Sequence record: PP526765
Strand: one strand, 5' to 3'
DNA length: 64,000 nt
DNA from: Escherichia phage HK3
Below the pieces are notes generated by a model. The model saw only the letters and a program-made list of their open reading frames with translations. It ran no database searches and was not told the origin of the DNA. Each line of letters opens with the position of its first letter. The stretch's first letter is position 1. The position numbers and the translations under genes are program-made. Of the stretch, positions 12,906-64,000 are shown one piece after another.

Positions 12906-13099
12906 AAAGACCCGCAAGATTGTACGTTCAGCAGTATTTATTGGAAGAAATGAAGTGATTCCTTTTACAGCAAATGATGTGATAGCCTACAGGAAAAAAT
13001 TAGCATTCAGTTATTGCTTACGTGGCTTTATCTCCCAGCCATTGGAAGACTTTAAAAGTCGTTGTGGTAAAGGTATCATCATTCAAGAGGCAATTATCA

Positions 13100-13300
13100 A
13101 TGGCTGACTTCTGCAAAGACTGTTCTATCGAAATGTTTGGACGTGATACAGGTGACTTAAAAGGTCTTATCACTGAAGACGACTTTAAAGCTGGTTATGC
13201 AATGCCAGTAATCTGTGAAGGTTGTGGGTGTATCTGGGTAGACCACGAAGGGCAACGTGTAAAACCTTCAGAGGATAAAGAATCTTGGGAGAGATGCTAA
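13100..13300 (+). CDS. small Cys-rich protein (CxxC...CxGC, 66 aa)
   Basis: ATG at 13100 (MADFCKDCS...ICEGCGC); stop overlaps next start (TAAATG). Confidence 0.35.
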   Translation: MADFCKDCSIEMFGRDTGDLKGLITEDDFKAGYAMPVICEGCGCIWVDHEGQRVKPSEDKESWERC

Positions 13301-14086
13301 ATGGGTATTGTAAAAATCATCAATGGGGATATCTTCTCCGCATTTGATAAAGGTAAGTTTGATATCATTGGTCACGGTTGTAACTGTATGAACTTAATGG
13401 GTGCGGGTATCGCTGACAAGATTTCTAAACTTTACCCAAAAGCATATGAGACCGATACAGAAGTTTATCTGTATGCAGGCGGTATAGGCCACAAACCCTG
13501 TGAAAATTTACTAGGCAACTTCTCTGTAGCACGTTTAGAACAAGGCCGTATAGCTAACCTTTACACTCAGCTTAAGACTGGTAAAGATGCCCGATACAGT
13601 GCTTTAGAGTCATCTTTGAAACAACTTAACAGATACTGTGAAGTTAATCAGTTGAAGAAAGTTGGTTTACCTATGATTAGTGCAGGTATCGGTGGACTTG
13701 ACCCTCAAGCCGTCACCGTTATCATTAATCAGGTGATGAAGAGTGTAGATGTCTATCTATATGTCTACGAAGGAGAGATGTACCACAAGTTACGCTCAGG
13801 TTGGAAGAACTACTGTGAACCAGAATACTTTGCAGGTGTAGTAGTGTTCACTGACGATGCAGTTACCCTCTTCAGACGAAGAAAAGGTAAGGTACATCAA
13901 AGTAACCCTCCGGTTGAAAAGATGTCTCTAAGTAACGCTCTAGTTACCCACCTGTCGAAGAGCAATCACAGAATTGCAGTAACATTTGGCAGTGATGCAG
14001 ATACATATATCTATGCAAGAACTGATGAGGATGTTGAGGGAATTTTCTCTTCACCGGAAGTTACCTTCTTAGACGCAAAGAACTAA
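13301..14086 (+). CDS. macro-domain protein, TARG1/OARD1-like ADP-ribose hydrolase fold, with C-terminal extension
   Basis: GDIF...DIIGHGCNCMNLMGAGIA and LPMISAGIGGLD match the TARG1-type macro motifs (GDLF...HCISEDCRMGAGIA...MPRIGCGLD) as recalled. Confidence 0.55.
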   Translation: MGIVKIINGDIFSAFDKGKFDIIGHGCNCMNLMGAGIADKISKLYPKAYETDTEVYLYAGGIGHKPCENLLGNFSVARLEQGRIANLYTQLKTGKDARYSALESSLKQLNRYCEVNQLKKVGLPMISAGIGGLDPQAVTVIINQVMKSVDVYLYVYEGEMYHKLRSGWKNYCEPEYFAGVVVFTDDAVTLFRRRKGKVHQSNPPVEKMSLSNALVTHLSKSNHRIAVTFGSDADTYIYARTDEDVEGIFSSPEVTFLDAKN

Positions 14087-14161
14087 GAAACTCTGTAGAA
14101 TATTCACAATAGACTAAGCCTTTCTTATCTGGTAAATTTTCAGGTAAGGAGGGCTTTTTCA

Positions 14162-14352
14162 TTTTAGAATTGTGCAGGTAGAGTTCTGGACAGAAATCTG
14201 TAGAGAGAATTTTGAACTCCAAAGAGAAAATTCATTTTCAAACTGTGCAGGTAATCTCCAAAGAGCTTTTTCATTTTCAAAATGTGCAGAGAAAAATCAG
14301 GTCGGGCAAGAAAAATCATTTTCGAATTGTGCAGGTAGGTGGGTGCAGGTGG
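14162..14352. repeat. four direct repeats, consensus TTTTCATTTTCRAAWTGTGCAGGTA (iteron-like)
   Basis: copies near 14162, 14236, 14272, 14318; no credible coding capacity. Confidence 0.7.
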
Positions 14353-14513
14353 GGATGTCGCCATTTCTCACAAGGCTACCACATCCGAAAAGAAAAGTCA
14401 ACAGAAAAATTTGTAGCGGATTGAAAAATAATTCTTGATTTGTGTTCTGTTTTGTGGTATTCGCGCGCACCCGTTTCATTACATTTTTGCCAAAAATATT
14501 TTTAAAATTTTTA

Positions 14514-14542
14514 TTGACTCATCGAACGGGTTTTTATAGTAT
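14514..14542 (+). promoter_or_regulatory. strong sigma70-like promoter TTGACT-N17-TAGTAT with A/T-rich UP-like tract
   Basis: read directly; flanked by inverted 7-mers ACCCGTT (14470) and AACGGGT (14525); heads the small-ORF array. Confidence 0.6.
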
Positions 14543-14595
14543 CTGCATCAGACGGGGCGACAAGCCCGATAGCCTTAAACTAGGAGATTCAAAAA

Positions 14596-14802
14596 ATGAT
14601 TTACAGCCGTGAATTGATGGTCACAACTAACGTTAACACAAAGGTAAAACGTTTTTATATGCAAGTATGCGGCGCATGGCGTAGAATATCAGAATCTGAC
14701 TATTGCAACTATGTAGAAACGGCTATTAATTCTAATTGCTATCTTACAAAGAATACAAAGCGACATATAAAACAGACAGCGGTTTACTATTACGATATAT
14801 AA
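14596..14802 (+). CDS. array small ORF 1 (68 aa)
   Basis: ATG 8 nt after TAGGAGA in conserved cassette. Confidence 0.5.
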   Translation: MIYSRELMVTTNVNTKVKRFYMQVCGAWRRISESDYCNYVETAINSNCYLTKNTKRHIKQTAVYYYDI

Positions 14803-14892
14803 AAAGTACTTTACAGGGGGCTTAAAAGCTGATATCTTAAGCCCCAGATAAAGAACTTTACCACATTAACCTTAAACTAGGAGATTCAAAAA

Positions 14893-15273
14893 ATGGCATA
14901 TCGTGCACCTAAATTCATCAATAAAGACAACTTCCGCAACGCACTGGAAAAATCACTTGATGAGAATTTTACAGGTCAGATTATTGTTGTTCACGCATTC
15001 AATTTTAAGTATGATATTAACGGGAACAGAATCAACCATTACACGGCAACCATGTTAGATGGTACACTATCAAGTGAAAAAGCTGTACTGAATGCACTTG
15101 CAGGACGTGGCAAAAACCTGATAAAATGCAATAAGAGACGTTATCAGGGCGGCGCATATGGTTATGATGACGCTGTTTACCATCTTGAAAATATGGGCTA
15201 TCAGGTGGAAAAAGCTGGGGTCTCTCAAATAATCGGCAGTGACGGCTATGTGACAATTTTCAAAATTAACTAA
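14893..15273 (+). CDS. array small ORF 2 (126 aa)
   Basis: conserved cassette upstream. Confidence 0.55.
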   Translation: MAYRAPKFINKDNFRNALEKSLDENFTGQIIVVHAFNFKYDINGNRINHYTATMLDGTLSSEKAVLNALAGRGKNLIKCNKRRYQGGAYGYDDAVYHLENMGYQVEKAGVSQIIGSDGYVTIFKIN

Positions 15274-15363
15274 TAAAGTACTTTACAAGGGGCTTATAGT
15301 TCGATAAAGTAAGCCCCAGATAAAGAACTTTACCACATTAACCTTAAACTAGGAGATTCAAAA

Positions 15364-15621
15364 ATGGCTATTATCAAAAACGTTACAATCCCTGCAAAAA
15401 CTCGTGATGACGCTCGCGTTATGGCTAAAAAGTTATGCGGAAAAGTGGTTGACAACGGAAAAAAATCTGCTGTAAGATGGGGTGTAAAGGTTGATAAATG
15501 TTTAACCTTAAAACGTAATTCAAACAACCTTTTTAAAGGTGTAAAATCACTCGGTAAAGTGAACGTTTTTACCAAAAAAGGCTATAAAATGCACTTATCA
15601 TTAACTTGCAATTTAATCTGA
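15364..15621 (+). CDS. array small ORF 3 (85 aa, basic)
   Basis: conserved cassette upstream. Confidence 0.5.
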   Translation: MAIIKNVTIPAKTRDDARVMAKKLCGKVVDNGKKSAVRWGVKVDKCLTLKRNSNNLFKGVKSLGKVNVFTKKGYKMHLSLTCNLI

Positions 15622-15711
15622 TAAAGTACTTTACATGGGGCTTAAAAGCTGATATCTTAAGCCCCAGATAAAGAACTTTACCACTAAATCCTTAAACTAG
15701 GAGATTCTAAA

Positions 15712-16008
15712 ATGAAATTATCGAATAACGTTCGTGAAAATCTAAGCAAATTACTCAATAAAATCGATTTTATTGAGACCTCAAGAAATACTCATGCGGT
15801 TATGGAATGGATACACGGCAAAATAAAAGGCCGTCGTGTGGTGATTTGCTTATGGAATAGTTGCAGGGAGTATAAAAAACCTGTATTACAAATTAATGTT
15901 TATGATAATACTTTTAAAAGCCCTGTAAAGTCTAAAAGTGACTTATTAGAATCTTATGAGATAACTTTAAATGGTAAGGTATCACGTAAAGAGGAAACAC
16001 CATGTTAA
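15712..16008 (+). CDS. array small ORF 4 (98 aa)
   Basis: conserved cassette upstream. Confidence 0.5.
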   Translation: MKLSNNVRENLSKLLNKIDFIETSRNTHAVMEWIHGKIKGRRVVICLWNSCREYKKPVLQINVYDNTFKSPVKSKSDLLESYEITLNGKVSRKEETPC

Positions 16009-16334
16009 TGATGGGGACAACTGCAATCATCGCCATTATAGCCCTTTATAAGGCTTACAGCGCCTACAATCTGGCAAGTAAGGCAATCACGCAGCAGGTT
16101 AATAATAACCTTGTAGAAAGCTTTCTAGGGCGTTTAAGCGATGAGCAAATAAAGCGGCTAGAAATGAGTTTCAGATTTCAATCAAAAACTTATCAAATCA
16201 GCGACATTTTCAAAGAGGATTTTCAGCTTGTCGATGATTATAACGCACTGATAAATGCTTTAAATATCAGTGACTTAAAAGATTATTACGCTGTAATTGT
16301 CCAAGAATTGAACAAACGAAAAAATTCCTCTTGA
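16002..16334 (+). CDS. array small ORF 5 (110 aa, N-terminal TM helix), coupled to ORF 4
   Basis: ATG overlaps previous stop; hydrophobic N-terminus. Confidence 0.5.
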   Translation: MLMMGTTAIIAIIALYKAYSAYNLASKAITQQVNNNLVESFLGRLSDEQIKRLEMSFRFQSKTYQISDIFKEDFQLVDDYNALINALNISDLKDYYAVIVQELNKRKNSS

Positions 16335-16423
16335 TTTTGGTTTTAAAAGCAAGTAAATTACTAATCAACGGGGAGGGAATGACCTTCCCCACTAAGTAAA
16401 ACCCTTAAACTAGGAGATTCAAA

Positions 16424-16696
16424 ATGTATACTACTAACAACGGTCGAACCTTAAACGTAACACTGCGCCACTATGTAAACGGTGTAATGCACTTCGAAGA
16501 TTTACAAGCTGAACAACATATTTTGGATTGGCAACTTGCAGGATTCCAAAAAACTGCTACCGGATACGGGAAAAAGATTCCAACTAGTTGGAAAGTATAC
16601 TACGAAGGCCGTTTGCGCAGAATTTATCAGGATGTTTACAGCAATAGCGCAAAAAGTTACATCATGGTAAAAGGTAAAAAATTACACTTAGTGTAA
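16424..16696 (+). CDS. array small ORF 6 (90 aa)
   Basis: type B cassette upstream. Confidence 0.5.
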   Translation: MYTTNNGRTLNVTLRHYVNGVMHFEDLQAEQHILDWQLAGFQKTATGYGKKIPTSWKVYYEGRLRRIYQDVYSNSAKSYIMVKGKKLHLV

Positions 16697-16783
16697 AGTA
16701 CTTTACAAGGGGCTTATAGTTCGATAAAGTAAGCCCCAGATAAAGGGCTTTACCGCATTAACCTTAAACTAGGAGATTCAAAA

Positions 16784-17188
16784 ATGGCTATCAATAAACG
16801 CGAATTATCAATTTTAAAAGCACGTTTGACCGTCAACCGGATTAATGTTATCACGTCATCAGCGCCAGACGAAACACTGCAAAACATTATCGGGAAGATT
16901 CAAAGTGTTATCTTAGACGTTGAAAGCGTAAAAAACTCACTGATTGACGTTGCAGCGGGTATCACGCTAGACGGCGCACAATATGAAATGGCTGACATGT
17001 TAGGCAAATCTAAGGTAATGAATAGAGAGCTGGATTTGAAAATGTTTCGTTTTGCTGTTAAAGTATGGCTAGCCATCGAATATGGCGCGAATTTTGCAAT
17101 CGCTGACTTTTTCGCCACCTGGTTACAACGTAATTTAACAAATCACGATTTTCGTGATATCTGCGACGTAATTTACGCAGAACTTTGA
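16784..17188 (+). CDS. array small ORF 7 (134 aa)
   Basis: type A cassette upstream. Confidence 0.55.
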   Translation: MAINKRELSILKARLTVNRINVITSSAPDETLQNIIGKIQSVILDVESVKNSLIDVAAGITLDGAQYEMADMLGKSKVMNRELDLKMFRFAVKVWLAIEYGANFAIADFFATWLQRNLTNHDFRDICDVIYAEL

Positions 17189-17292
17189 AAAATTTCTCTT
17201 GATTTTGGTTTTAAAAGCAAGTAAATTACTAATCAACGGGGAGGGAATGACCTTCCCCACTAAGTAAAACCCTTAAACTAGGAGATTCTAAA

Positions 17293-17496
17293 ATGGCTAC
17301 TATCAACGGTTTAAACATTGAAACTACTCACATCAAAGATATTAAAGTCGGTGATACAGTCCTTTTTCACGGCGTAGAAAAAACCGTTACGGCGAAAGAC
17401 ATCAAAGAGGATTCTTTCATGGGTCGGTCTCTCTTCGGTGATTCGTATTGCTTAGGTTACCGTGCAGTTTTAAAAGTTGTAAAAAATAATAAATAA
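17293..17496 (+). CDS. array small ORF 8 (67 aa)
   Basis: type B cassette upstream. Confidence 0.5.
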   Translation: MATINGLNIETTHIKDIKVGDTVLFHGVEKTVTAKDIKEDSFMGRSLFGDSYCLGYRAVLKVVKNNK

Positions 17497-17583
17497 AGTA
17501 CTTTACAAGGGGCTTATAGTTCGATAAAGTAAGCCCCAGATAAAGAGCTTTACCACTAAATCCTTAAACTAGGAGATTCAAAA

Positions 17584-18126
17584 ATGAAATGCTTTCACGG
17601 TACTACTCAAGAAAATTTTGTCAACCTGATTAATAACGGTGATAAGCCATCAGGCGCATGGAATTGTTCGGATATGGATGGGAATTTTTACGTTTATCCA
17701 GAAAATAAAATCTATGGTGACGATGAGGAAGAAATAGTCTCTGAAGGTATCCAGCAAGCTCTGGGCAATGCCGCTATCACCGCAGCTTTCCAGATGAAAA
17801 CTCAAAACATTGTTATCTTGGAACTTGATATTCCAGAAGATGAGTTAAATGATGATTATTCTTGCGATAATATGTCTGGCGTGGCAAGTTTTACAGAATA
17901 TTTCGATTTAAACTGGATTAAAAAGGTTTACACCACTGAATTCAATGCCATGTTTTCGCCATTTTGTCTTCCTTCACTGGATAACCCGAATTTAAACTAT
18001 ATTGATGAGTCTCTGGAACTTCTCGCTAAAAGTGTTCAGCAATCAGACAGTATTCAGGTTTTTTGTGACATCATGGACACACTGACGGGAAACATCGCAG
18101 AAAGAGATTTAAAGGGCTTTTTCTAA
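17584..18126 (+). CDS. array small ORF 9 (180 aa, acidic)
   Basis: type A cassette upstream. Confidence 0.55.
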   Translation: MKCFHGTTQENFVNLINNGDKPSGAWNCSDMDGNFYVYPENKIYGDDEEEIVSEGIQQALGNAAITAAFQMKTQNIVILELDIPEDELNDDYSCDNMSGVASFTEYFDLNWIKKVYTTEFNAMFSPFCLPSLDNPNLNYIDESLELLAKSVQQSDSIQVFCDIMDTLTGNIAERDLKGFF

Positions 18127-18192
18127 TAACCTATACAATCACCTTATAAACACTGATTAGCCCCTTCTAGGGGCTTTTAGGAGGCTTAAATC

Positions 18193-18426
18193 ATGCTTAC
18201 AACCGTTTACCTCATCCTTTCCATTTGTAACGGTCATTCATGCGATTTTAAAGGGCTTGAAGAATTTACAGGGAGTAAAGAAAATGCTATTCAGGTTTGC
18301 CAGATAGCAAGACAAGACTACCCCACCAGTGATGATATACAATGCTATTTTAAGACAGAAGACAGCGACGGCGTTTATTTTGACAGCGTTGATGGTCAAT
18401 ATGAAATTATCATAGAAAAAGACTAG
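18193..18426 (+). CDS. array small ORF 10 (77 aa)
   Basis: preceded by hairpin AGCCCCTTCTAGGGGCT and AGGAGG Shine-Dalgarno. Confidence 0.5.
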   Translation: MLTTVYLILSICNGHSCDFKGLEEFTGSKENAIQVCQIARQDYPTSDDIQCYFKTEDSDGVYFDSVDGQYEIIIEKD

Positions 18427-18516
18427 ACAAGCCTGATAGAAATCTGTAAATTGTCAATCAACGGGAGGTAATGACCTCCCAACGAAGTAAAACCCTTAAA
18501 CTAGGAGATTCAAAAA

Positions 18517-18858
18517 ATGGCTTATGTAACTGTAATTACCAATAAACCGGATTCATCTTGGTCAACTCAAGTAAGTGATAAGATGACACCTATGCAGTGC
18601 CTAAAATACTTTGAGCAATGGAATAAAGGCGAGGATATCAGCCCCTTTCAAGTGATGCAGATTATCCATACAGACAACGAAGGGATTAAAACGGTTTTAA
18701 ATAGTGAGTACTATGTAACCAGATTTGAAACGAGATGTAAAACGATGAAACTATTACGCGAATCCGGTTATCCTCATATTGCCGCGCTAATCTGGGATGA
18801 TTTGCTAAAAAATCAGCGTATCAGCTACGTAAAACCTGAAAAAATATTCATCAGTTAA
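18517..18858 (+). CDS. array small ORF 11 (113 aa)
   Basis: type B cassette upstream. Confidence 0.55.
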   Translation: MAYVTVITNKPDSSWSTQVSDKMTPMQCLKYFEQWNKGEDISPFQVMQIIHTDNEGIKTVLNSEYYVTRFETRCKTMKLLRESGYPHIAALIWDDLLKNQRISYVKPEKIFIS

Positions 18859-19080
18859 TCAATAACTTACAAAAAACTTTCAAAAAAGTATTGACAACAC
18901 CCCTTGACATTGGTAACTTTGTTCGAGGGGGTTTATCTTAAAGGGATTCACTTAAAAGATTTCTTTAAAGATAAGCTTAAAAAATTGCTTGCAATCAGAT
19001 ATCAAAACAAGTAAATTACTAATCAACGGGAGGGATAACCCCCCCCACTAAGTAAAACCCTTAAACTAGGAGATTCTAAA

Positions 19081-19611
19081 ATGAACAAATTTCAAGCTAT
19101 CAACTATATTCGTTCCGTCAATGTCATGTCAAAACCTGTAAAAGATACGTATGAATTTCGTTGCAATGGTGTGCATTTTGCGACCATCACCAAATCAGAA
19201 AACGGGGCTTATTACGTTCATCGCCGTAATGTTGCAACCGTTGTAGTCTCTCATTTTATGCAAGCTGTCGCGGAACTTCTCCCGATGTTTTTGGGTCTTT
19301 ACTTGGATGAGTGTAAGCACATTCACAATCACGTTAAAAACCTTTTAAACAGTTATAAAATGGCTTACGAGCGTTCAATCAAGTACTTAAACAAGTTTTA
19401 CAACGCACCTGAAAATACTGTATCAATGGCCTATGCTGAAAATGGTGAGTTAGTGAGTCTCTTCGAAGTGGAAGAAATCAAGCTGTACGATTTACTCCCT
19501 AGCGGTTACACTAAGACACTGGGAGAAGGTTTGTCTTTCAATATCAAGAATTTAGAAAAAACTTTAAAAGATATTGAAAAAGATATTGACGAGACAATCA
19601 AAAATCTGTAA
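19081..19611 (+). CDS. array small ORF 12 (176 aa)
   Basis: type B cassette plus extra TTGACA promoters at 18890-18920. Confidence 0.55.
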   Translation: MNKFQAINYIRSVNVMSKPVKDTYEFRCNGVHFATITKSENGAYYVHRRNVATVVVSHFMQAVAELLPMFLGLYLDECKHIHNHVKNLLNSYKMAYERSIKYLNKFYNAPENTVSMAYAENGELVSLFEVEEIKLYDLLPSGYTKTLGEGLSFNIKNLEKTLKDIEKDIDETIKNL

Positions 19612-19679
19612 ATTGTCAATCAACGGGGAGGGAATGACCTTCCCCACTAAGTAAAATCCTTAAACTAGGAGTTATCAAG

Positions 19680-19943
19680 ATGGAAAACGTAGAATTAACC
19701 ACACTTTTACAAATCGCAACCGACAAAGAAAACGTAGCATTATTACACCGCATTGAAAGCGATTTGTTCAATGGTGAAATCATCAAAGAGTCTTACGAAG
19801 TTGTCGGATTCAAAGATGGTAAAACATTTGGATTCTTTGACCTCGACAAATGCAACGCTGTTACAAATTACGATGTTTTATCTTGTGAGATTCTTACAAA
19901 ATACAACGAAAAAAGGCTTGCAACATACGCCAACATGCAGTAA
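19680..19943 (+). CDS. array small ORF 13 (87 aa)
   Basis: type B cassette upstream. Confidence 0.5.
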   Translation: MENVELTTLLQIATDKENVALLHRIESDLFNGEIIKESYEVVGFKDGKTFGFFDLDKCNAVTNYDVLSCEILTKYNEKRLATYANMQ

Positions 19944-20008
19944 ATTACTAATCAACGGGAGGGATGACCTCCCTACTAAATAAAGTCCTTAAACTAGGAG
20001 ACTCTAAA

Positions 20009-20257
20009 ATGGCAACTATCCGCGCAACTGTTAACGAATTTGGCTTCTACTCTCTGGATGTTAAATTCGACCTTGTGGGTACTGATAACGCCTTTGAAAT
20101 GGTGAAAGTTCTTATCAGTCAGACCATCAAAGACTATAATCCTTCAGATGAGTTCTGGAAAGAAACAAAACAGGAAGTTCTCAAAGAGGGCTATTCATAT
20201 CACCATTGGGGTGAAAAAATCGTCTCCCTGTACTACGACAAAGAAGGCACTAACTAA
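20009..20257 (+). CDS. array small ORF 14 (about 82 aa)
   Basis: type B cassette; ATG at 20009 (track ORF 19964 starts inside the cassette). Confidence 0.5.
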   Translation: MATIRATVNEFGFYSLDVKFDLVGTDNAFEMVKVLISQTIKDYNPSDEFWKETKQEVLKEGYSYHHWGEKIVSLYYDKEGTN

Positions 20258-29338: not shown

Positions 29339-30754
29339 ATGAGCAAGTTATTTAAACATGCGCACCTTCATGCAGGTCGAACTGAAAATGGTGCTGTAAA
29401 CCATACTTCATCAATGTCTGCTCTGGTAGACTTCTACAAAGCCGCTGGTTCAAGCCGTAGCAATGTAGAAATCTTACCAGACCTGTTCTACAAAGCTTTG
29501 CGTGAGGATGTTGATGTTGCAGTTCGTATTTTACTGCATATGCGAGATGTACGAGAAGGTATGGGCGAGCGTAAAGCTTTCCGAACTGTTTTGCTTCAAG
29601 CGATTGAAGATAAGGTTTTAGAACCTACACAGGTTCTTCGCATTATGGATAAGATTGCAGAACTTGGTCGTTTTGATGACTTCAAAATCTTTGTAGGTAC
29701 TCGTTTTGAGACAGACGCCTTCAAACATTTAGAAGCAGCATTACTAGACCCTGCAACAGCAGGTTTAGCAGCTAAGTGGTTGCCACGAGTAAAACCACGC
29801 CACAAACAGTTTGTAAAACGTTTCTGCAAGTTTGCAAACTTAAGTGAGAAGGAGTATCGCACACTGTTGTCTGCACTATCTGATACGGTTGAGCAAAAAA
29901 TCTCTGCTAATGAGTTTGGTAAGATTGACTACAGCAAGATTCCTTCACTAGCTGCTGCACGTTACCAAAAACTCTTTAACCGTAAAGATGGTGAACGTTA
30001 CAAAGCTTACATCGAGTCGCTCTCAAAGGGTGAGGCTAAGATTAATGCTGGTGCTGTTTACCCATACGATGTGATTAAATCTATTAAGTATGGTAATGCA
30101 GATGTTGCTAATGAGCAGTGGAAAGCACTTCCAAACTGGATGGCAGAAGGTGAAAACATCTTGTGTATGACTGATGTTTCAAGCTCAATGTCTTGGGTGA
30201 ATCTTGGTTCAATCACTGCCCTTGATATTGGTGTATCACTTGCTTTGTATGTAGCAGAACGCAATACTGGTTGCTTTAAAGATGAGTTAATGGTTTACTC
30301 AACAAACCCTCACTTCATTGAACTGAGTGGTGATTTACGAAACCGTCATCGTCAGGTGATGCGTCACGTTGAATATGGCTCAACTAACTTACAAGCAGCT
30401 TTTGACCGTATTCTTGAAATAGGTAAGAGAAACAACTTGACTCAGAAAGATATGCCAAGTAAGCTTATTATCTTCTCTGATATGGAGTTTAATCAGGTTG
30501 ATGGTGCAAATGGTCATACAAACTTTGAAGCAATTCAGAGTAAGTACAAAAAAGCCGGATACGAAATGCCACAACTAGTATTCTGGTACTTAGCAAACCG
30601 TAATGGTACTTGCGAAGTATCTGTTAAGGATAATGGTGTAGCAATGGTATCAGGGTTCTCTCCAGCCACTTTAAAAGCTCTACTTGGTGGTGAGAAGTTT
30701 GACCCAATCAGCGTAATGCTCAAAGCAGTAATGATTGACCGTTATATCTGGTAA
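29339..30754 (+). CDS. vWA-domain protein with MIDAS motif; candidate Ro60/TROVE-like (Rsr-like) RNA-binding protein
   Basis: C-terminal vWA signature ILCMTDVSSSMS (DxSxS); about 470 aa with helical N-terminal region; sits directly upstream of the tRNA/ncRNA cluster; TROVE assignment is inference. Confidence 0.4.
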   Translation: MSKLFKHAHLHAGRTENGAVNHTSSMSALVDFYKAAGSSRSNVEILPDLFYKALREDVDVAVRILLHMRDVREGMGERKAFRTVLLQAIEDKVLEPTQVLRIMDKIAELGRFDDFKIFVGTRFETDAFKHLEAALLDPATAGLAAKWLPRVKPRHKQFVKRFCKFANLSEKEYRTLLSALSDTVEQKISANEFGKIDYSKIPSLAAARYQKLFNRKDGERYKAYIESLSKGEAKINAGAVYPYDVIKSIKYGNADVANEQWKALPNWMAEGENILCMTDVSSSMSWVNLGSITALDIGVSLALYVAERNTGCFKDELMVYSTNPHFIELSGDLRNRHRQVMRHVEYGSTNLQAAFDRILEIGKRNNLTQKDMPSKLIIFSDMEFNQVDGANGHTNFEAIQSKYKKAGYEMPQLVFWYLANRNGTCEVSVKDNGVAMVSGFSPATLKALLGGEKFDPISVMLKAVMIDRYIW

Positions 30755-47623: not shown

Positions 47624-55654
<8,031 letters not shown>

Positions 55655-62671: not shown

Positions 62672-63001
62672 TTAATCTGCCAACCTTAAATTAAAATTAA
62701 CACCAAATTTTTCGCATACTTCCAACATAAACTCAAGAGAGACATTACCAGTGAGATTGATTATGTTGGATACACGAGCCTGAGAGATACCACAAATTTT
62801 AGCAACTTGCTCTTGAGAAAGACCTCTGGATTTAATCTCTCTCTTAAAACGATGTGCAACGAAGTCTCTCATTTCGTCTACATCCATTGGACAAATATAA
62901 CTCTCCATTTCAGCCTCTCTGTCAGCCTCCCAATCATCTTGTGGAGCATAAGGGTCAAAAACCTCATTCATCTTTCTTCTTCCGTTTGCGTGAAGTGTCA
63001 A
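62672..63001 (-). CDS. XRE-type helix-turn-helix DNA-binding protein
   Basis: LSQEQVAKICGISQARVSNI matches the XRE-family HTH pattern. Confidence 0.55.
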   Translation of the reverse strand: MTLHANGRRKMNEVFDPYAPQDDWEADREAEMESYICPMDVDEMRDFVAHRFKREIKSRGLSQEQVAKICGISQARVSNIINLTGNVSLEFMLEVCEKFGVNFNLRLAD

Positions 63002-63177: not shown

Positions 63178-63561
63178 TCAAATACCTGTGCAGCTTCTGT
63201 TTTCTAAGAAATACTCAACACCATACATAGCTTTTTGCATCAAATCCTCTTTAAACTGGATGCGATGATTGAGCATAGTCTGTACATCAATATCCTCATG
63301 GTGCTTCTCTTTAATGTTTGCAGATTGCAGGAAATACTCTGCAAGAACACGATACTGATAGTCAGTCACCTTATCAGTCATCTCTGTTAAAGACTCTTCA
63401 GAGATTGGTTTAAGTAACTCACCATTAGCCAGAGCAACACCTTTAACAATCTGGCAAGTGTCTTCTGGAACACCTGATAAGTCCACATTGGGAAGTTCTG
63501 TTGCATTAGCTGGTAAATTCATTGCCATAACCATTGCAGCAGCTAATAAAATCTTTTTCAT
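63178..63561 (-). CDS. secreted/periplasmic protein (127 aa)
   Basis: N-terminal signal peptide MKKILLAAAMVMAMNLPANA. Confidence 0.5.
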   Translation of the reverse strand: MKKILLAAAMVMAMNLPANATELPNVDLSGVPEDTCQIVKGVALANGELLKPISEESLTEMTDKVTDYQYRVLAEYFLQSANIKEKHHEDIDVQTMLNHRIQFKEDLMQKAMYGVEYFLENRSCTGI

Positions 63562-63639
63562 AATGACCTCAAAGTTATATTAAATTTTGTATTACATTGA
63601 GTATAAAAATAAGCTATAACACCTGACTTGTCAACAGAT

Positions 63640-64000
63640 TTTATAGCTTATTTGGCAGATTTTTTATAAGGCTACTGCCATCCTTCCATACCAAACCCTA
63701 CCTTACCACACCATACCATACCAAACCCGACCAAACCCGACCGAGCATCGCTTAAAAATCCTCTTAGAAGACTCTTAAGTGATGTAATCGAATTTTAATG
63801 TAGCTCCGATTAACTACCCATACCTCACCTTACTTAACCGTACCGCACAGAACCACACCAAACCTAACACCACTTCTCATCACCTTATTAAAAACCATGT
63901 TTAAAGACCTTTTAAAAAGATGAGTCTCATTTTAATGTAGATGAGACTAACTACCCACACCAGACCTAGCCTTGCCTTACCATACCGAACAATACATCAC
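63640..64000. repeat. non-coding CA-rich repeat region with two copies of a unit built around ATTTTAATGTAG...TAACTACCCA
   Basis: copies near 63798 and 63938; CCATACC/ACCAAACCCGACC-type short repeats at 63670-63730. Confidence 0.6.

Follow-up and report, generated by a model that had tools for sequence, protein, structure and literature searches.

Period-5 YNNGG tracts upstream of the frd and td genes of Escherichia phage HK3 very probably belong to a VIPR guide-RNA array

Viral Interference Programmable Repeat (VIPR) is a CRISPR-like, RNA-guided DNA-binding system that was first described in a 2026 preprint (bioRxiv 10.64898/2026.04.26.720920; PMC13142463). Its components are a phage-encoded RAMP homolog, Vipr, which is about 20-22 kDa and Cas7-like, and an accessory protein, Vap; the two genes are denoted vipr and vap. 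The guide RNAs, termed vrRNAs, consist of 9-16 YNNGG repeats, in which GGY is conserved and NN is hypervariable, and end in a 3′ tail of ~40 nt that is invariable and forms a hairpin and a pseudoknot (bioRxiv 10.64898/2026.04.26.720920). Either strand of double-stranded DNA can be the target, no protospacer adjacent motif (PAM) is needed, and reading proceeds as NNx, so that each unit skips one base; VIPR represses rather than cleaves. In the model phage SUSP1 one vrRNA lies upstream and three lie downstream of vipr-vap1; the co-purification of roughly 100-nt vrRNAs with Vipr and the repression of targets were reported for SUSP1 and P. fulva only (bioRxiv 10.64898/2026.04.26.720920). The present study concerns a 64-kb stretch of Escherichia phage HK3 (record PP526765; 64,000 nt, hereafter the window), and in particular positions 63654-64000. 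The minus strand of this segment is very probably the promoter-proximal part of a type II (SUSP1-clade) VIPR guide-RNA array with three vrRNA genes. The element is a new instance of VIPR, a mechanism already published in 2026, and is not new as a discovery.

The window phage is a Felix O1-like myovirus (Felixounavirus), and SUSP1, a Suspvirus, belongs to the same subfamily. Region 63400-64000 is matched by 230 phage records, nearly all of them Felixounavirus and relatives, and the best match is Escherichia phage vB_EcoM_D4 (locus L003), with 94% identical DNA. The array occupies a long intergenic stretch on the gene (minus) strand, on which it is read throughout, upstream of an operon that runs from a gp93 homolog through a helix-turn-helix (HTH) regulator to frd and td. 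The visible order in the window is hairpin A, vrRNA-3, tail B-II, a T-rich spacer, vrRNA-2, tail B-I, hairpin A, vrRNA-1, tail C and a promoter, P2. The SUSP1 locus (L273) reads P1 (an upstream promoter), A, tract, C′, vipr, vap and terminator, followed by two rounds of T spacer, tract and B-II, and then by A, tract, C and P2, which is exactly the layout stated in the preprint. The P1, hairpin A, tails, T-rich spacers and P2 of SUSP1 are near-identical to those of the window, and the B-II tail of vrRNA-3 is identical in design to the tails of the SUSP1 array.

The protein genes next to the array in the relatives agree with this arrangement. In D4, open reading frames (ORFs) of 195 and 146 amino acids lie directly upstream of the array, and the terminator, vap and vipr are found at L003 12791-13848. 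The 195-aa ORF is 97.9% identical to the SUSP1 ORF (ALH47069) that follows vrRNA1 and that is the vipr coding sequence according to the preprint methods (bioRxiv 10.64898/2026.04.26.720920). The array-adjacent Vipr protein of the relatives was tested as a RAMP (RRM core) homolog, and the RAMP fold was confirmed. The array units in the window are small-RNA genes on the minus strand, namely VIPR guide RNAs. With the SUSP1 clade of type II VIPR the locus shares its YNNGG tracts (9-14 units, NN hypervariable), a structured 3′ tail that does not vary, the placement of the array between vap and the next operon, and the rule by which one base per unit is skipped, at the wobble position, in targets on the same E. 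coli satellite. The guide (NN) sequences, by contrast, are unique to the window phage, and vipr and vap lie outside the window. The window further shows three classes of tail, B-I, B-II and C, and, between guides, hairpin A of 17 bp, rich in G.U pairs; neither feature is mentioned in the main text of the preprint.

The association of tracts with Vipr extends beyond these close relatives. A scan of IMG/VR with the DNA pattern (GGTNN)6GGT alone gave at least 120 loci; 38 of the 120 loci listed encode a Vipr-family homolog close to the tracts, compared with 0 of 27 control loci, and the positive loci include all large arrays inspected among the matches listed. The first IMG/VR scan, in which the pattern ATGTAG…TAACTACC (14 specified bases) was used, was too unspecific and gave chance loci only. 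Unrelated viral contigs in IMG/VR (L161, L162, L169, L172, L178, L204, L243, L250 and others, among them a contig of 388 kb) contain as many as 18 degenerate GGY/NN tracts per array. These tracts are punctuated by short conserved elements, for instance GGCAGTT, AAGGCTAATGG, AAGGAATGGTTTAATGAATTTAATTT or a GTGCCAATGGCAC hairpin, and a Vipr-family gene lies close by. In the literature on Felix O1 repeats, transcriptomes and origins nothing relevant was found; the Felix O1, wV8 and UAB_Phi87 papers refer to anonymous direct repeats only.

The resemblance to the crRNA/Cas7 (RAMP) backbone of Class 1 CRISPR is one of architecture. In both, a RAMP-fold protein oligomerises on a guide RNA, a variable guide is capped by a constant structured handle, and pairing is interrupted periodically. 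VIPR differs in having no 30-40 nt repeat-spacer units, no cas1/cas2 and no adaptation module; its period is 5 nt in the guide, where two of five bases pair, and 3 nt in the target, and here it is encoded by a lytic phage. The features of a CRISPR array, 23-50 nt direct repeats with unique spacers and cas genes, are not found in the window array, which has a 5-nt period, units of ~135 nt that differ in kind, and no cas genes.

The repeat code was examined in the loci of relatives, which comprised 23 IMG/VR loci gathered via the neighbouring protein together with wV8, nataliec, D4, UAB_Phi87, SUSP2, Mordin, Felix O1 and SUSP1. From ~30 related phages 96 tracts were extracted, 71 of them distinct, and the lengths of 68 of these 71 are equal modulo 5; the window tracts have 9, 14 and 12 units. 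Across 840 pentamers, position 3 is G in 81%, T in 12%, A in 7% and C in 0%, position 4 is G in 98%, and position 5 is T in 81% and C in 11% (pyrimidine 92%), while the two NN positions are near random. Tracts at orthologous positions show a median identity of 63%, against 61% for pentamer-shuffled tracts; the 520 nt adjoining the tracts are 96.5% identical at the orthologous position. Period-5 GG tracts were found nowhere else in the window, in the 24.6 kb of D4 or in the whole UAB_Phi87 genome, and in 0 of 20 shuffles. The earlier note on this DNA, made from the letters alone, had described the surroundings as CA-rich with short repeats; these are real and more regular than it had described, forming a strict (YNNGG)n series on the minus strand. 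The near-constant final TATGG unit matches the targets in only 9 of 30 good matches, and it is therefore probably part of the handle and not of the guide.

Matches to the NN bases were found in foreign DNA, in satellites of E. coli. Figure S14 of the preprint names the satellite proteins WP_096972664 and WP_096972663 (bioRxiv 10.64898/2026.04.26.720920). A blastn search of complete E. coli genomes with the window baseplate region (49866-51981) detected the satellite in 474 of 5,426 genomes (~9%), always in the chromosome and at no more than 94% nucleotide identity. Ten satellites (L277-L286) were scanned, each an island of ~11-12 kb at yciI/tonB or beside yecN; L282 carries WP_096972663 and WP_096972664. 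The threshold for a target was an 80% NN match under the 1-nt-skip rule, and order-shuffled guides served as the control. With 70 unique guides from relatives against the ten satellites, 41 reached at least 80% and 18 at least 90%, whereas the shuffled guides gave 0-3 and 0, respectively. No self-targets of the guides were found within the window.

Among the guides of the window, vrRNA-3 has an 18/18 NN match under the 1-nt-skip rule at L284 5555-5580(-) (E. coli EC17CM6, NZ_CP190018.1), where the target sequence is GAGATTTCAATAAATAAATAGCTGGT. The site spans the final six codons and the stop codon of a 58-aa ORF that carries no annotation (L284 5736-5560, minus); each NN falls on codon positions 1-2, and the wobble position is the one skipped. 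For vrRNA-1 the best satellite match is 18/24 (75%), at L280 5687-5721(-) and below the 80% threshold, with 17 of 18 bases matched in the first nine NN. This partial match falls at the 3′ end of the homologous ORF in L280 and L281; it is not claimed as a target because NN is not in the wobble frame.

Other features of these islands were noted in passing. The unannotated satellite ORF of 58-61 aa (L284 5560-5736(-); L280 5687-5872(-)) has a hydrophobic centre and a basic tail, and its 58-aa form looks like a small membrane protein. The satellite gene annotated as phage baseplate protein is up to 94% DNA-identical to the phage gene at window 49887-50660, the gene of a 265-aa protein that follows the tape measure. 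Further genes of the island are those of a tape-measure protein, a large serine recombinase, an adenine methyltransferase and an HNH endonuclease. Three of the ten satellites carry a period-5 GG tract of their own, at L277 5861-5920(-), L278 3044-3108(-) and L282 2926-2990(-). The L278 tract is followed by a C′-like tail (GGGTGGATTGTCGTAGCCACGTTAAAAATCGAC), in agreement with the remark in the preprint that some satellites encode vrRNAs.

The 3′ tails contain the feature that first drew attention to the locus. The earlier note had reported two copies of a loop motif about 140 bp apart and had read the same loop on different stems as covariation. The copies are present as described: ATTTTAATGTAG lies at 63792-63803 and 63929-63940, a spacing of 137 bp, and TAACTACCCA lies at 63811-63820 and 63948-63957, with no further exact copies of either in the 64-kb window. 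Copy 1 is flanked by the arms AATCG (63786-63790) and CGATT (63807-63811), and copy 2 by AGTCTCAT (63923-63930) and ATGAGACT (63941-63948). Among 55 tail copies from ~30 related phages there are two stem classes only. The parts common to the B-I and B-II tails are GGGUAGUUA and a 12-nt loop, NCUACAUWAAAA, which are carried on 8-bp stems. Three of the 8 stem positions differ between B-I and B-II, and all three are compensated (A-U/G-C, G-C/U-A and G.U/C-G). Paired cells make up 91% of the tail stem, against 78% in shuffles, and the observed covariation score was reached by 0 of 500 shuffles; slid registers of the stem give 9-42% pairing. Because the same loop on different stems shows genuine covariation, the B-I/B-II tail hairpin is under selection. 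Similarly, tail C (GGCAG/CUGCC) and its paralog upstream of vipr (GGUAG/CUACC) are related by a compensatory C-G/U-A change.

The hairpins also identify the strand that folds. Hairpin A contains several G.U pairs, and its pairing holds on the minus strand only; in 16 variants 96.7% of its cells are paired, and one pair runs through C-G, U.G and U-A. Segment 63745-63822 folds at -23.9 kcal/mol on the minus strand (z = -4.7) and at -13.8 on the plus strand. The folding strand is the minus (gene) strand, because the G.U pairs in hairpin A and B-I would be A.C mismatches on the plus strand. No Rfam family was matched; three chance-level matches, with E > 2, fell far below the gathering scores. The tail loop was also considered as a phage promoter (GGGTAGTTA-N7-CTACATTAAAAT), and this was rejected, as the motif is found nowhere else in the 64 kb and the promoter scan gives only P2 here.

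The coordinates of the array and of its neighbours are collected in Table 1. P2 is situated inside a 13-bp inverted repeat (63641-63653 with 63606-63618), with its -35 element in the loop; it drives the operon of the gp93 homolog, frd and td, bounds the array and belongs to no guide. In D4, the -10 element of P1 (L003 14086-14113) forms part of one arm of a 9-bp inverted repeat, and the inverted repeats around the sigma-70-like P1 and P2 that flank VIPR modules may be operators. A scan for intrinsic terminators found none in the window, by which hairpin B-II and hairpin A were ruled out as intrinsic terminators; the only clear terminator at the locus is the one after vap in the relatives. The sequence of the T-rich spacer is the same as the stretch 3′ of that true terminator, and both the 3′ end of the preceding guide and the beginning of the following one probably fall within the spacer. 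Searches of Pfam and PHROGs with the neighbouring small proteins yielded the HTH regulator as the sole function.

Table 1. Features of the VIPR array locus and of the adjoining operon in the 64-kb window of phage HK3.
Feature	Position	Strand	Description
vrRNA-3 guide tract	63955..63999	minus	9 YNNGG pentamers: TGATG TATTG TTCGG TATGG TAAGG CAAGG CTAGG TCTGG TGTGG; NN code GA AT TC AT AA AA TA CT GT
vrRNA-3 3′ tail, class B-II	63915..63954	minus	GUAGUUA, hairpin AGUCUCAU/AUGAGACU, 10-nt loop CUACAUUAAA, U-run; second copy of the loop motif of the earlier note
T-rich inter-guide spacer	63888..63914	minus	CUUUUUAAAAGGUCUUUAAACAUGGUUUUUAA
vrRNA-2 guide tract	63818..63887	minus	14 pentamers, 5 with TG or AG replacing GG; NN code (AA) GA GA GG TA TT GT TC GC AC TA AA GA (AT)
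vrRNA-2 3′ tail, class B-I	63785..63817	minus	GUAGUUA, 8-bp hairpin UAAUCGGA/UUCGAUUA including one G.U, 12-nt loop GCUACAUUAAAA; first copy of the loop motif
Hairpin A	63746..63784	minus	17-bp inter-guide hairpin CAUC.ACUUAAGAGUCUUC-UAA-GAGGAUUUUUAAG.GAUG
vrRNA-1 guide tract	63686..63745	minus	12 clean YNNGG pentamers; NN code TC CG TT CG TT AT AT GT AA AG TT (AT)
vrRNA-1 3′ tail, class C	63654..63685	minus	AAGGAU, hairpin GGCAG/CUGCC, A-rich 16-nt loop
Sigma-70-like promoter P2	63606..63653	minus	TTGACA 63634-63629, 17-nt spacer, TATTTT ending 63606
gp93 homolog	63561-63178	minus	first gene of the downstream operon
HTH regulator	62672-63001		within the downstream operon

The position of P2 bears directly on whether the tracts act in cis. 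They could be a leader or protein platform for the frd/td operon, either a TRAP-like attenuator in which GGU is read or an operator for the HTH regulator that is encoded downstream. The tracts do lie between tandem sigma-70-like promoters, P1 and P2, and at some loci they are in the 5′ leader. A triplet that alternates with two free bases also resembles the trp leader of Bacillus, where 11 (G/U)AG triplets are spaced 2-3 nt apart; both have ~9-19 repeats on single-stranded RNA and an oligomeric protein reader. P2, however, is downstream of all units, so that P2 transcripts exclude them, and the operon is also present in the Mooglevirus Mordin, where all of these elements are missing. A fixed reader needs no hypervariable NN, whereas the NN bases behave as a target-matching code and match foreign DNA. 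The window array further differs from the TRAP leader in having GGY instead of (G/U)AG, informative spacers, no terminator/antiterminator switch and a RAMP reader in place of TRAP. A cis-regulatory role is accordingly a most improbable account of the tracts, and the suggestion that the locus is a regulatory site for thyA/folA does not agree with the location of the sole sigma-70-like promoter of the downstream operon (63634-63606), which is outside the repeat units. An antisense Rho-loading site, a ribosome standby array, a tRNA-CCA sponge, a primase site cluster, Chi-like hotspots and phase variation were considered as well; none of them accounts for the conservation of GGY together with NN bases that carry information.

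A structural role for the DNA itself was also considered. The locus could be a genome-end repeat, a packaging signal or a replication origin, the last through an R-loop or G-quadruplex that the G-rich non-template strand would form 3′ of a promoter. In favour of this are the length of the region, its lack of coding sequence, the nearby ligase and DNA polymerase genes, an extreme G/C strand asymmetry with GG runs 3 nt apart, and the hairpins; several of the IMG/VR tracts, among the matches listed, are also at contig ends. The ends of the relative UAB_Phi87 have been mapped experimentally: it has a 608-bp direct terminal repeat, and its Bal31-sensitive SpeI fragments are 4322 and 2819 bp (PMC4837284). 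These fragments fit only the 6568-bp SpeI fragment at record 13014-19582; the array locus lies elsewhere, at 57.9-58.5 kb, where a stretch of 18.5 kb contains just one SpeI site. The terminal repeat thus maps ~40 kb from the locus in the record (PMC4837284 and the SpeI map), and the genome-end repeat or packaging signal that the earlier note had named as possibilities is not supported by the mapping in this relative (PMC4837284). Moreover, GC skew tracks the direction of the genes and does not inflect at the locus, and a G-quadruplex or R-loop needs no conserved Y after GG. Mordin lacks the element and Felix O1 retains a reduced form of it, so that it is dispensable. An end, packaging or origin function has scarcely any probability in our estimation.

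Some details of the UAB_Phi87 genome may be recorded here. Record NC_027360.1 has a ~542-bp terminal duplication (1-542 and 87062-87603) that does not coincide with the published 608-bp repeat. The published length of 87,669 equals a unique 87,061 plus 608, and according to the SpeI data the true ends lie near record 15.2-17.4 kb.

With the locus read as a VIPR array, a course of action can be proposed. The vrRNAs, roughly 100 nt long, would be bound by Vipr, as was shown for SUSP1 and would hold here by homology. The GGY of each pentamer would be held by the protein, and only NN would pair with the double-stranded DNA. Either strand of the target could then be read, in the form NNxNNx with a skip of one base for each unit and no requirement for a PAM. 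Such binding would repress transcription of the target, typically of a competing mobile element. On the same footing vrRNA-1 and vrRNA-2 are presumed active, and we infer that vipr and vap are carried just beyond the window edge, ~250-1300 bp further.

Several points weigh against the assignment to VIPR. The mechanism rests on one preprint, and the expression, processing, Vipr binding and activity of the window RNAs would follow from it by homology. The window ends, at 64000, inside the array, without vipr and vap in view. About half of the related phages are without vipr/vap (among the phage records searched, 132 carry the Vipr gene and 258 a gp93 homolog), and some vipr-less phages keep one or two orphan tracts. 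No target with at least an 80% NN match was found for vrRNA-1 in the ten satellites, and exact-pattern scans with it gave 0 matches in IMG/VR, 0 in metagenomes and, in GTDB, 3 chance-level matches in unrelated metagenome-assembled genomes. Similarly, vrRNA-2 has no significant target in the ten satellites, the best match being 19/28 (68%), and 5 of its 14 pentamers are without GG; it may be decaying. In the tail, GUAG 5′ of the hairpin can pair with the loop CUAC in an H-type arrangement, as a pseudoknot would require, and the 4 pairs are invariant in 14 distinct sequences, so covariation speaks neither for nor against it.

These points bear most closely on the alternative that the locus is a decayed or orphan remnant of a VIPR array, from which vipr and vap have been lost, and whose RNAs are no longer guides or act in trans with the Vipr of a co-infecting relative. 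Ten related loci without vipr do keep one or two tracts, three single-tract orphan guides that were tested have no satellite target of at least 80%, and the degenerate pentamers of vrRNA-2 would suit decay. The rest of the array does not, for vrRNA-3 keeps a perfect target and vrRNA-1 has 12 clean GG pentamers. The visible order in the window is that of the vipr-positive D4 and is seen in no vipr-less locus examined; tail B-I occurs in 14 loci, all 14 vipr-positive, and in 0 of 10 vipr-less loci. Because the visible order matches D4 and B-I occurs only in vipr-positive loci, a complete VIPR system in the window phage is likely, as judged from sequence, and we consider a mere remnant improbable.

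The orphan tracts of the relatives deserve description for their own sake. One or two promoter-driven YNNGG tracts with tails are present in the vipr/vap-less Felix O1 (L152, 3210-3505) and UAB_Phi87 (L004, 9163-9720) and in the vipr/vap-less loci L127, L129, L141, L131, L132, L139, L144 and L148. In Felix O1 the order of elements is P1, A, tract, C, P2; UAB_Phi87 has two tracts, in the order P1, A, tract, B-II, T, tract, C, P2. Such tracts could be remnants, trans-acting guides or decoys. The modular appearance of the region recalls the PeSL cassettes of T4-type phages, in which shuffled ORFs are bordered by modules of a promoter and a stem-loop. The vipr-vap cassette, which is present or absent among close relatives, is likewise bordered by promoter, hairpin and terminator modules that recur. 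The modules here differ in that they hold guide tracts with a defined RNA function, and recombination would be a by-product.

Other repeats and one gene elsewhere in the window were also noted. In the early region (14573-20017) cassettes are repeated; CCTTAAACTAGGAGATTC followed by ATG occurs 11 times, and GC-rich hairpins and promoter-like boxes (AAAGTACTTTACA...GGGGCTT) recur 5-7 times. They look like promoter, terminator and ribosome-binding-site modules flanking small early genes. At 14150-14334, just after a phosphatase-like gene, there are 3-4 tandem copies of ~34-39 nt ending in CATTTTCAAA(A/C)TGTGCAG. A 471-aa protein with DUF2828, DUF7788 and VWA domains is encoded at 29339-30754 (+), beside a tRNA cluster at ~30.9-36 kb. 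It appears to be a candidate counterpart of Bas63 gp130, whose gene also lies immediately upstream of a run of tRNA genes; Bas63 gp130 has been described as Ro60-like and as countering the ppl defence system (PMC11482910).

From sequence alone, our study checks the preprint independently as regards the code of the repeats, the RAMP fold of the protein, the proximity of tracts to Vipr genes and the targeting of satellites with a one-base skip. The guide vrRNA-3 and the small unannotated satellite ORF constitute a natural guide-target pair that is directly testable. It is conceivable, though we hold it unlikely, that hairpin A and the handles B-I, B-II and C, which are distinguished here beyond the main text of the preprint, specify distinct fates in processing, termination or loading, or that orphan tracts act in trans or as decoys against the Vipr of co-infecting phages; if so, the array would be more than a string of equivalent guides. 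VIPR has been proposed as an ancestor of CRISPR effectors and is attractive as a very small programmable DNA binder. A system of the SUSP1 type is placed here in a Felix O1-like phage, a member of a group that is used for the typing and biocontrol of Salmonella and E. coli.

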